From positions 384,001 to 448,000 of the forward strand of contig CAVVXH010000010.1 of NCBI GenBank assembly GCA_963752155.1: 64,000 nt of DNA, in the 5' to 3' direction. Source of the stretch: an uncultured Parachlamydiaceae bacterium. GTDB lineage: Bacteria > Chlamydiota > Chlamydiia > Chlamydiales > Parachlamydiaceae. Of this stretch, positions 44,678 to 52,617 are shown one piece after another (the first letter of the stretch is position 1; each line of letters opens with the position of its first letter). Under the pieces are notes generated by a model, which ran no database searches, had not been told where the DNA came from, and saw nothing but the letters and a program-made list of their open reading frames with translations. The position numbers and the translations under genes were made by a program.

Positions 44678-47600
44678 ATGTACACAGATATGGCTTTAAC
44701 ATTGAAACAAAGTATTTTGGGCGCTCCTCCTAATCAAAGGTCTACAAATTTTGAAATGAAACAAAGTATTTTTGACGCTCCTGATACAAAATTTTCAAAT
44801 GATGTGATCTTCCATTCTTCATTTTGTGAGGTAGAAAAGAAAGTCGATCGTTGGCTCACTCGCTTTAAATATTCCAATGACCAATCCGTTGTTCAAGATC
44901 TCTATCTTTTCTACTTGTTAGCTTCAAAAAAATTTCTTGACCATCGGTACCCTTCTCACCTTTCTAAATTATTTTTATCGATCCACTTGATGCAGAAAAC
45001 ATTGGCGCAGAAGGTCGCTTTTTCTCCTCAAATATTACATGTTAAGGTGCGTTGGTTGCCAGGTATTTTAAAATTTCCTTTTTCTAAACGATCTGTTCTT
45101 GGGTGCTTGGTCTGCTATAACGCGTTAGATAAATATGAATTATTTGATGAAGAAAATCTTTCCCTAGCCTTTCAGAAGCAATATCCTGATATTAGATTGG
45201 TTAAAGAATCCCTATACCAACATACAACGAAAAATAAAAATCTTAAAGTTCATTATTTTGAAGTAGAAAAAAAAGATGGTTCAGATTTTTCTCTTGATCA
45301 GCAAAATTTGATTAGAAATAATGTCGAAGAGAGAGTGCGTAATAGCATTCAAAAACTCTCTCCTTCTACTTTTATGAAGCGAAATGAAGAAGAAACCTAT
45401 AAAACTATTTTGGTCTTAAGCAACGAAATTAGTTCTTTAGAAGATTTACCGCAAGCAGTGATTAACTTAGATGAGCATTCAGGAAATGAAATCATTTTTC
45501 AAGTTGTGCTTGTCCTCCCGGCCCCCTTTCACAATTTTTCTCTAAAAGAACGTTTTGTTGAATGCACTTTTGTTCCAAAACGGTTGGCAACTGTCAGGCA
45601 TTTGGATGATCATCCCATACAAGCCCATGTTTTCTCATTGCACCTTAGCCGCTCTTCAGCCTTTTTAAGAACTGATGGATCATTGGATTTTAATATAGCG
45701 AGGCAAAAAGTCGGGACTCTTCTTCAGTCAGCCATTGGGGCATTTCGAGATTATAATGGGGGGCTTTTGATTAAACAACAAGAGCATTTGGAAAAATTCA
45801 GAGGCGCTTTCCCAGAAGCTGATCAAGAGATTTTGGAAAAGTTTTTCTATTCGATTGCCCCTTTGCAAAAACAAGCGATTTTAGATCAAGAAATTCTATT
45901 TTTATTTTTTAAATTCTTTTTAGAGCATCGAAAAGAAAAACTACAGAAAAAGATTGATTTTATTTTCATCGATTCAAAAATAGAAGAGAATAGATATATT
46001 TTTGTAAAAGGGAATGATTGCTCATTGGGTGACACAATCGATTCTTTTATCCGTGATCACTTTTTTCAATCGCATGAAATTGTTTATAGCCTTTTAAATA
46101 CCCTAGAAGGAGTTTTGTTTACTGCCGTTTTATTAAACCCTACAAAAGAAAAAGAACTCTTTTTTACTAAAAACTTAAAGCAAAAGCTAAGAGACTGCCA
46201 AAAAAAGATTGAGGGAAAAAATGTCTTAAAAATAGGTGTCGAATACATGCCTGTTTCTTTAGATCCACGTATTGGGGTAGATAACCTATCGGCTGATATG
46301 ATCTATCTACTTTTCGAAGGTTTAATGCGTTACGATGAAAAAGAGCAAGTGGTCAATGGAATGGCCCAATCGATCGAAATTTCTCCTGATGCTAAGCAAT
46401 ATATTTTTAAACTCAGACAGGCATTTTGGAATGATGGGACTTCTGTGACAGCCCATGATTTTGAGTATGCATGGAAAAAGATCCTCTCGCCGGATTTTAA
46501 AACAATTATTGCCGAAGTGTTCTATCCCATTAAAAATGCCATGAAAGCCAAGCAGGGGAAAGTCCCTCTTGAAAGCGTTGGTGTCCAAAGCATTGATGAT
46601 CGCACGCTTAAAGTGGAACTTGAACATCCGACGCCCTTTTTTTTGCAACTGACTGCACTCACTTCTTATTCTCCTATCCATCGAACCATCGATCAAAGAA
46701 GACCGCAATGGTCCTATGAGTGTGAGTCTAACTATCCCTGCAATGGTCCCTTTCAATTAAAAATTAACCAGTCCAATCAAGGATTTCAACTCATTCGAAA
46801 TCCTTTTTATTGGAATGTGAGTTATGCTAATTGGGATCAAATCAACCTAATTCAAGTAGCTCCCTCTCAAGCCCTCCATGCTTTTCAAAATGAGGAAGTG
46901 GACTGGATTGGCAATCCGTTTGGAGCGTTTCATTCTAAATTTACTCCTAAAAAAAGGGGGGAAGTTTTTGTTTTTCCGAATAACTGGGTTTGCTGGCAAG
47001 TTTTTAATACGTCATGTCCCCCCTTTCATTCTCGTAAACTCAGAGAAGCCTTGGGTTATGCCATTGATCGTGAGAGTATTGTCTCCAATGCGTCTTTACC
47101 TTTAAATCCTGCCTTTTCACCATTTTTGTATCGACAATGTTACATTAATCGCCAGGTCGATTTTCCGACATTTGACCCCATTAAAGCGCGACAATTATTT
47201 CATGAGGCGCTCAATGAGTTAAATTTATCCATTGATGATCTCCAACCTTTAACATTGATCTACAATGAGGGGGAGATTCGAGAATACACGGCTCATTGTT
47301 TAAAAATACAGTTTAAGGAAACCTTAGGCCTAGAATGTGAGCTGAAATCGCTTCCTTGGAATAAGCTTTTTAATCAAATGCACTCAGGAAATTTCCAATT
47401 AGGACTCATTAGTTGGAGTTCGCCTATAGATGATCCATTACATCAGCTTAATTATTTCCGGTTTAATATAGCCAATGTTGCCCATTGGGAGCATTCTGAT
47501 TATCAAAATTTGTTGCACTTAAGTGAACAGGAAATCAATACTTTTCAACGTTCTTCCTATCTGATTAAAGCTGAAAGGCTACTCTGTTATGAAATGCCTG

Positions 47601-47722
47601 TCATTCCTATATTTTATCAGCCTTCTCTAGGTTTAGTTAAAAACGATCTTCAGGTTGTACTCAATCTCTCAGGCACCTTTAATATAGCCAAATCTTTTAG
47701 CCAAGAGCCTAATCTTTCTTAA
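44678..47722 (+). CDS. Large fusion: ~515-aa unknown N-terminal region plus OppA-like peptide-binding domain; no signal peptide seen
   Basis: PVSLDPR, LFEGLM, YIFKLRQAFWNDGTSVTAHDFEYAW, NGPFQL, RNPFYW, EMPVIPIFY. Confidence 0.85.
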   Translation: MYTDMALTLKQSILGAPPNQRSTNFEMKQSIFDAPDTKFSNDVIFHSSFCEVEKKVDRWLTRFKYSNDQSVVQDLYLFYLLASKKFLDHRYPSHLSKLFLSIHLMQKTLAQKVAFSPQILHVKVRWLPGILKFPFSKRSVLGCLVCYNALDKYELFDEENLSLAFQKQYPDIRLVKESLYQHTTKNKNLKVHYFEVEKKDGSDFSLDQQNLIRNNVEERVRNSIQKLSPSTFMKRNEEETYKTILVLSNEISSLEDLPQAVINLDEHSGNEIIFQVVLVLPAPFHNFSLKERFVECTFVPKRLATVRHLDDHPIQAHVFSLHLSRSSAFLRTDGSLDFNIARQKVGTLLQSAIGAFRDYNGGLLIKQQEHLEKFRGAFPEADQEILEKFFYSIAPLQKQAILDQEILFLFFKFFLEHRKEKLQKKIDFIFIDSKIEENRYIFVKGNDCSLGDTIDSFIRDHFFQSHEIVYSLLNTLEGVLFTAVLLNPTKEKELFFTKNLKQKLRDCQKKIEGKNVLKIGVEYMPVSLDPRIGVDNLSADMIYLLFEGLMRYDEKEQVVNGMAQSIEISPDAKQYIFKLRQAFWNDGTSVTAHDFEYAWKKILSPDFKTIIAEVFYPIKNAMKAKQGKVPLESVGVQSIDDRTLKVELEHPTPFFLQLTALTSYSPIHRTIDQRRPQWSYECESNYPCNGPFQLKINQSNQGFQLIRNPFYWNVSYANWDQINLIQVAPSQALHAFQNEEVDWIGNPFGAFHSKFTPKKRGEVFVFPNNWVCWQVFNTSCPPFHSRKLREALGYAIDRESIVSNASLPLNPAFSPFLYRQCYINRQVDFPTFDPIKARQLFHEALNELNLSIDDLQPLTLIYNEGEIREYTAHCLKIQFKETLGLECELKSLPWNKLFNQMHSGNFQLGLISWSSPIDDPLHQLNYFRFNIANVAHWEHSDYQNLLHLSEQEINTFQRSSYLIKAERLLCYEMPVIPIFYQPSLGLVKNDLQVVLNLSGTFNIAKSFSQEPNLS

Positions 47723-47728
47723 TTTAAG

Positions 47729-52103: not shown

Positions 52104-52235
52104 CGTTTCACAGTGACTTTAGACTTTTTGATTGGGGATCACAGCGTATTTTTGCAGTTTTTTTGTTAATATCAACATTGAGCTTAACTTAAAAAAAAGA
52201 TTCCATAACTAAAAAGTCTGAAGTCATGTGAAACG
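52104..52235. repeat. ~25-bp inverted repeat immediately upstream of lanB
   Basis: CGTTTCACAGTGACTTTAGACTTTTT ... AAAAAGTCTGAAGTCATGTGAAACG. Confidence 0.8.
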
Positions 52236-52365
52236 CATCAACGAAAGAATTAATTCAGTGTGACTTATCCTCAGACCACATGATCCCTATATGAGAGCTC
52301 ATGTGGTTTGATCCTGTAAGCGGGCGCATAAACCCACTTCTTTAGGTTTGACAAATTCCTTGTAA

Positions 52366-52617
52366 TCAACCTGGTCCAGTCATTTTAGATATAAAGTCCT
52401 GAACCTTTATTTCCCTAGCTTTGTAATCAACAGCATAAACATCAACATCCTCGTTCAGGCAAATCTTTTTCTCGAAGAGCCTTGGATGTTCTGATGATAA
52501 TTCACTTGCTTGAGGTAAAATTCCTTTTCCTTTGAAATTTTCCTTCGTTGTCTCCTTTCTATTCACATTCTCTTGGATATTGTTAGATGATCCAAATGTA
52601 ACACCTCTTAGTTCCAT
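52366..52617 (-). CDS. 83-aa hypothetical protein upstream of lanB on the same strand
   Basis: Strong RBS AAGGAG; followed by a hairpin at 52271-52311. Confidence 0.65.
   Translation of the reverse strand: MELRGVTFGSSNNIQENVNRKETTKENFKGKGILPQASELSSEHPRLFEKKICLNEDVDVYAVDYKAREIKVQDFISKMTGPG

Follow-up and report, generated by a model that had tools for sequence, protein, structure and literature searches.

Among described systems, the closest counterparts of the locus reported here are the class I lanthipeptide clusters (NisA/NisB/NisC, MibB, and the chlamydial lanA-lanC-lanB loci). Dehydration that depends on tRNA also occurs without lanthionine rings in thiopeptide- and goadsporin-type pathways, which use a split LanB and YcaO. 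Peptides and receptors form signaling pairs in Rap–Phr and Rgg–SHP, and SgrR is a cytoplasmic regulator with an OppA fold. The locus occupies positions 44678–52617 of a 64,000-nucleotide stretch of contig CAVVXH010000010.1 (the window) from an uncultured Parachlamydiaceae bacterium. It comprises a dehydratase gene (lanB), a small precursor-like gene, and a pair of genes for an OppA-fold fusion protein and a MATE-like transporter. Based on sequence comparisons, we somewhat favor the view that it is a LanC-less cassette derived from a lanthipeptide cluster, in which LanB would dehydrate Thr80 of the precursor to give a linear peptide containing dehydrobutyrine (Dhb), which the fusion protein would bind and MATE would export. 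The features of the locus, in window coordinates, are as follows.

44678..47722, plus strand: OppA-fold fusion protein of 1014 amino acids (aa); Pfam PF00496
47729..49102, plus strand: MATE-like membrane transporter (MOP superfamily); PF01554 match of 34 bits, above the cut-off
49027..52092, minus strand: full-length LanB dehydratase of 1021 aa with glutamylation and elimination domains; Pfam matches and NisB alignment
52366..52617, minus strand: LanA-like precursor of 83 aa, with DVYAVD at Tyr61, Ser77, the conserved Thr80, and the tail TGPG
52624..52631, minus strand: AAAAGGAG, resembling a ribosome-binding site (RBS), 6 nt ahead of the precursor ATG; read from the sequence, with comparable sites at other family members
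52661..52690, minus strand: promoter-like TTGACT-18 nt-TAGAAA, 5' of the precursor; TTGACT is conserved across precursor genes

The MATE gene starts 6 bp past the fusion gene, and its 3' end overlaps lanB by 76 bp, which confirms the coordinates and three-gene layout given by a first-pass annotation of this DNA. That annotation had seen no precursor in the window. None is Cys-rich, as it stated, but the 83-aa open reading frame (ORF) at 52366–52617, which falls inside the interval it described, is a member of a precursor-like family. The synteny it had proposed to check does recur: fusion, MATE, and lanB are linked in four cassette-bearing relatives, designated G133 (99% complete), G110 (98%), G374 (88%), and G201, and a 2.8-kb contig shows the same order. 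The window's own genome (G000) is 80% complete. In line with the suggestion of a probably intracellular bacterium, the host is a chlamydia, its closest named homologues carrying Parachlamydiaceae/Protochlamydia labels. The GC content of lanB resembles that of the remainder of the window. No locus exceeded 44% identity in a scan of metagenomes, and a single-protein locus scan found nothing.

The cassette shares with class I clusters a full-length LanB with the NisB catalytic set, an upstream precursor, and a first modifiable Thr that lies about 20 residues past a leader motif (aromatic-x-hydrophobic-Asp), which may correspond to FxLD. Unlike those clusters, it has no LanC and no LanT or LanP, is joined to an OppA-fold fusion and MATE, and has cores that mostly comprise only 4–9 residues, usually with one Thr and mostly without Cys. 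In its opening steps it would work as a class I lanthipeptide pathway does, and it fails on LanC and the ring-forming Cys. Thiopeptide- and goadsporin-type systems differ in that the LanB of the cassette is one chain and that YcaO was found in none of the five cassette genomes, in searches with working controls. PEARLs are described in PMC9505594 as LanB homologues without an elimination domain. Like a PEARL or small LanB with its pearlin, the cassette combines a LanB-family enzyme, no LanC, and a short ribosomal peptide; unlike them, it keeps a conserved elimination domain, offers an internal Thr and not only a C-terminal acceptor, and lacks linked tailoring enzymes. The earlier judgment that the locus fits neither class I nor PEARL systems is borne out, since LanC is missing and the elimination domain is present.

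The LanB aligns to NisB from end to end and contains PF04738 (E 2e-135) and PF14028 (E 2e-43). All 12 catalytic positions of NisB, as listed in PMC4341554, are retained (R15, Y75, R78, R82, T84, D117, D295, R461, R794, R837, H976, and R981). None of them is missing from more than one of the 22 aligned close homologues, and the elimination residues R794, R837, and H976 are invariant in all 22. The glutamylation and elimination motifs named in the first-pass annotation are all present, but the arginine of its VRY motif is not the equivalent of NisB R786, which is R794, within HLRLR. Ratios of nonsynonymous to synonymous substitution rates (dN/dS) relative to G133 and G201 are 0.15–0.16 for the N-terminal part and 0.19–0.23 for the elimination domain. 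G000 holds a single LanB. These properties bear on the idea of a PEARL-like LanB that would add an amino acid from tRNA to the C-terminus or as a Thr ester, without elimination, the resulting small molecule being cut off and exported. The short tail, the small-molecule-type exporter, and the common aminoacyl-tRNA chemistry would suit such a pathway. The presence of an elimination domain with three invariant residues under constraint (dN/dS about 0.2), a domain that PEARLs are described as lacking (PMC9505594), and the lack of linked tailoring enzymes make it highly improbable.

LanC was found in G000 neither by Pfam, with silent controls, nor by a profile of 52 chlamydial LanCs; the earlier remark that LanC and YcaO are missing holds genome-wide. 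Because G000 is incomplete, the absence leans on the relatives too: a search with a chlamydial LanC alignment found none in G133, G110, or G374, and the sole LanC of G201 belongs to a second, canonical cluster. Across 401 chlamydial genomes, LanB matches occurred in 42, of which 41 were retested for LanC and 35 contain it. LanC is adjacent in 38 of 46 LanB neighborhoods. Five of the eight others have the fusion–MATE–lanB order (G000, G133, G110, G201 contig C1, and G374), and of the other three, one has a broken gene, one lies at a contig end, and one is G075. A phylogeny of 82 LanB sequences groups the five LanBs that lack LanC and adjoin MATE in a single clade with support 1.0; its sister is a lanA-lanC-lanB locus, and it is nested within loci of that type. 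The simplest account is thus that LanC was lost, and this loss likely took place in the ancestry of the clade. An ordinary class I lanthipeptide with its LanC in the unassembled part of G000 would be in keeping with the 80% completeness of that genome and with the 35 of 41 chlamydial LanB genomes that have LanC. It is largely refuted by the two relatives of 98–99% completeness that also lack LanC and by the Cys-free core of the window precursor.

Chlamydial LanBs occur in about one in ten of the genomes searched, and ABC exporters adjoin only a few of their loci. Gallidermin/nisin-like cores (TSKSLCTPGC type) are encoded at loci L037, L039, L041, L051, L055, L056, and L062, and several clusters with such cores include an EpiD-like flavoprotein.

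At all five LanC-less loci, an ORF of 81–143 aa lies upstream of lanB on the same strand. A profile of eight other members ranked the window ORF first of 47,532 small frames in G000. When 1.84 billion proteins were searched, 17 matched, comprising six known members, 10 new short members, and one weak match in an 871-aa protein that was set aside, and the family as analyzed has 20 sequences. In the family-level survey of 73 genomes it occurs in five, the same five that carry a LanB of the clade. In all 20 precursors the leader has the Tyr motif, a Thr or Ser stands 19–22 positions past the Tyr, and a short tail rich in Gly comes next; the offset equals that of Thr2 in gallidermin-like chlamydial cores. 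Upstream in the canonical chlamydial clusters are small ORFs whose leader motif is D-x-(Y/F)-D-L-D and whose cores are rich in Cys and in some cases gallidermin-like; a profile of these LanAs gives the best member of the precursor family an E value of 0.009. FxLD is a recognized class I leader motif according to PMC7268733. No Cys follows the modifiable Thr/Ser in 15 of the 20 precursors, in contrast to canonical cores, 40 of 42 of which have at least two (a set chosen by motif, with six candidates dropped beforehand). The window precursor has no Cys after the leader motif, so that ring formation in its core is impossible.

The first-pass annotation had proposed that the substrate could be a protein rather than a leader peptide; a dedicated precursor gene 5' of lanB in all five genomes leaves that idea unsupported. 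In a variant of it, the small ORF would be a leader-only activator acting in trans while LanB dehydrates or glutamylates a protein, such as the fusion or a secreted protein. The minimal tail past the motif (TGPG), and the Gly-Gly that ends the tail of most members, as in a double-glycine leader, would agree with this. Yet a Thr or Ser stands at the modifiable position in every precursor, the G201 precursor (L038:11449-11880) repeats a Thr-Thr-Gly-Ser-Gly-Gly unit about six times in tandem, like a multi-core precursor, and a C39 exporter is not conserved across the clade, and we regard the variant as quite unlikely.

TTGACT lies at a similar distance ahead of nine of 10 precursor genes, with TTGATT in the tenth, and an RBS-like site is present as well. 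A generic promoter scan did not list the TTGACT-18 nt-TAGAAA site, and the pattern in the window is by itself not rare, occurring in 12 of 100 shuffles. At the other end of the gene, the frame past the precursor TGA (52342–52368, minus strand) is open for seven more codons, one of them Cys, and in an alignment with the G133 precursor a Cys stands at the TGA position. Read-through with selenocysteine was rejected, as neither SelA nor tRNA-Sec was found and most members end in a similar short tail. The open frame probably reflects chance, with a recent nonsense change as the other possibility. Two DNA sequencing runs matched in scattered short stretches only, and these did not cover the end of the precursor gene.

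The N-terminal half of the fusion protein is modeled as three α/β modules that appear ACT-like (about aa 45–510), and it is followed by an OppA-type domain (about aa 512–995) whose closest solved structure is B. subtilis OppA (E 8e-86). A model of the N-terminal half has a predicted local distance difference test (pLDDT) score of 83, and its best fold match is the regulatory region of a large NAD-glutamate dehydrogenase. This match ranked top in both searches and is middling in strength (Foldseek E 2.7e-5; VIA Z 7.6, root-mean-square deviation 3.4, 106 aligned), with atlas hits at 0.75–0.86. The ACT-like region is under strong constraint (dN/dS about 0.1), and no DNA-binding or catalytic domain was recognized in the fusion. 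The protein had been described as signal-less, and neither the window copy nor any of 20 close homologues has a hydrophobic N-terminus or lipobox. Permease genes are absent from the five cassettes. The ligand's N-terminal amine is held by OppA Asp419, according to PMC5736914. The corresponding position in the fusion is Pro916; it is Asp in two of the 20 close homologues, shows seven residue types among them, and ranks eighth of 485 in variability. The fusion differs from an ABC-importer OppA in showing no sign of secretion or lipid anchoring and in having no permease neighbors and no Asp419. OppA Arg413, which has a role as well, aligns to Leu910.

Modules of this kind also form a protein of ~650 aa; a query with the N-terminal half of the fusion matched 67 of the 73 family genomes. 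One such protein of 644 aa in G000 (L076:8368-10302, contig C6), with apparently ACT-like modules only, lies beside HPr and pepF. It matches proteins in most genomes of the family and has no Pfam or NCBIfam name, and its C-terminal part again gave only ACT-like leads. Other families contain proteins of about 1165 aa that share this N-terminal region. Distant fusion homologues of about 926 aa lie directly ahead of an ordinary oppA at L169 and L056, and at L169 the homologue heads an oppABC-type operon. The arrangement of these homologues suggests that the fusion arose beside a peptide importer.

The MATE-like protein matches PF01554 over its N-terminal half only and scores 70 bits with TIGR00797, below the cut-off of 147. 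Together, the fusion and MATE genes resemble a chlamydial OppA-fusion/SH2-like/MATE operon, with which they share gene order and about 50% identity each. Unlike that operon, the cassette has no SH2-like gene, carries lanB and the precursor tail-to-tail, and is accompanied by extra pairs in one genome. None of the five cassettes has the SH2-like gene, and a search of their genomes, which had no positive control, did not find it. Pfam SH2 falls below cut-off in three of five SH2-like ORFs tested, and modeling the protein from one sequence gave a low-quality structure (pLDDT 45). As a separate observation, LanB occurs outside the clade in 5/8 family genomes with the SH2-type operon versus 9/60 others (Fisher p 0.007, with kin non-independent).

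The extra pairs are those of G110, which has seven full fusion copies, six precursors, and one LanB. All six precursors are tail-to-tail with a fusion copy, 40–420 bp apart; the paired fusions share about 66–80% identity, and dN/dS values of 0.29 for the precursors and 0.10 for the fusions indicate purifying selection. These pairs suggest that the fusion–MATE pair was recruited to the LanB pathway. They recall Rap–Phr and Rgg–SHP in the combination of a predicted short processed peptide and an intracellular receptor, with several cognate pairs per genome. The cassette departs from those systems and from SgrR in joining ACT-like modules to an OppA fold, in lacking a recognized DNA-binding or catalytic domain, and in a peptide that is predicted to be dehydrated. 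Several of the satellite fusion copies in G110 (L163–L167) have upstream of them a member of an unnamed family of ~350 aa, with no Pfam match in the two tested.

One fusion per precursor would equally fit toxin–immunity pairs. The dehydro-peptide would then be a weapon that acts either as an electrophile reacting with thiols or by entering competitors through Opp uptake, and the fusion and MATE would protect the producer, with one immunity copy for each precursor. An origin in lantibiotic-type clusters, among them some that have gallidermin-like cores, would be in keeping with such a role, but the cores are very short and mainly Gly, and the constrained three-module ACT-like region exceeds what a sink needs. 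We consider the weapon unlikely.

Under the dehydration pathway that we prefer, LanB would bind the Tyr motif of the precursor as NisB binds FxLD, glutamylate Thr80 from Glu-tRNA, and eliminate glutamate to leave Dhb; tRNA-Glu is present in G000. By analogy with class I chemistry, these steps are probable. With neither LanC nor Cys, the product would stay linear. A protease encoded elsewhere would, with somewhat less confidence, free a product of 4–9 residues, for example (Met)-Dhb-Gly-Pro-Gly, or the 2-oxobutyryl form of the peptide if the cut falls directly before Dhb. An exposed N-terminal Dhb hydrolyzes to an oxobutyryl cap, and a capped peptide would fit the fusion's loss of the amine-binding Asp. 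A peptide of 4–9 residues would be of the right size for an OppA pocket and for a MATE pump alike. The chances are about even that the cytoplasmic fusion is a cognate receptor signaling via its ACT-like modules, and export of the product by MATE is slightly less secure. The most likely role is that of a peptide signal with a matched receptor, which is preferred to self-protection because the ACT-like region is conserved. In evolutionary terms, an older fusion-SH2-MATE operon may have had its SH2-like gene replaced by lanA-lanB.

Several observations weigh against this interpretation. The fusion–MATE and precursor–lanB halves are convergent and share no common operon, and no protease gene is linked to the cassette. 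In a leave-one-out test, the profile matched the window ORF with a genome-wide E value of only 0.33, and the canonical chlamydial LanA profile leaves that ORF unranked. A downstream Cys is present in five of the 20 precursors, where ring closure could occur non-enzymatically. In the fusion, 14 OppA pocket positions taken together show no higher variability than other positions of the domain (p 0.55). All five cassettes go back to one event, so that their synteny counts as a single observation. Outside the LanB clade, the fusion–MATE pair is found in eight family genomes, in seven of them with an SH2-like ORF between the two genes, and 20 loci picked from other families include MATE in 19, an SH2-like ORF in 17, and LanB or LanC in none. 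As the pair is common in chlamydiae without LanB, it was not built for a LanB pathway. The G110 pairs, finally, could be explained as co-duplicated DNA.

In a rival view, the two halves are functionally unlinked, lanA-lanB working alone or being a decaying lanthipeptide cluster beside an independent fusion–MATE operon. A fusion-(SH2)-MATE operon that is widespread without LanB, the convergent orientation, the single origin of the clade, and its patchy occurrence within genera all favor this. Against decay stands purifying selection, which acts on the two domains of LanB as well as on the precursors. Co-duplication alone leaves unexplained why both genes of the six G110 pairs remained intact as the fusions moved apart to about 66–80% identity, and the SH2-like gene is missing from the cassettes (with the caveat on controls given above). 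An unlinked locus is accordingly rather unlikely, if the most credible of the alternatives considered.

Should the preferred interpretation hold, a lantibiotic cluster would have been turned to a new use by loss of its cyclase and shrinkage of its core to one dehydrated residue. The precursor family would offer LanB enzymes a set of minimal natural substrates and would supply the first candidate ligands for the uncharacterized chlamydial fusion–MATE module. The six matched peptide–fusion pairs of G110 make the receptor idea directly testable and, if it is true, point to chlamydial peptide signaling. It is conceivable, though doubtful, that the cassette defines a new RiPP class (peptides that ribosomes make and that are modified after translation), in which a stand-alone full-length LanB makes tiny linear, Dhb-containing or oxobutyryl-capped intracellular signals, each read by a cognate cytoplasmic ACT–OppA receptor to which a MATE exporter is coupled; this would be a peptide-signaling system of amoeba-dwelling chlamydiae that evolved from lantibiotic genes and whose peptide replaced an SH2-like input. 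Listings of papers on LanC-less LanB, chlamydial lanthipeptides, and chlamydial SH2 proteins, from which subscription journals were mostly absent, showed no account of such a system.

Elsewhere in the window, a four-gene NHLP/NHLM-type bacteriocin exporter (HlyD, C39-ABC, ABC, and TolC) is encoded at 23042–31116 on the minus strand, with a cNMP/Rce1-like gene nearby at 31530; the ORFs listed at 31100–36100 include no obvious precursor. This exporter was rejected as a core part of the cassette, as two of the four relatives have no C39 and the other two gave weak or short-ORF matches. Nested inverted repeats lie upstream of the fusion gene at 43890–44530. Blastn with the 330-bp element, likely of a family resembling miniature inverted-repeat transposable elements, matched the genome in 651 pieces, some of which span its full length at 88–92%. 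An RHS-repeat gene at 36087–41223 (minus strand) appears as two overlapping ORFs of 1056 and 731 aa and is probably frameshifted.

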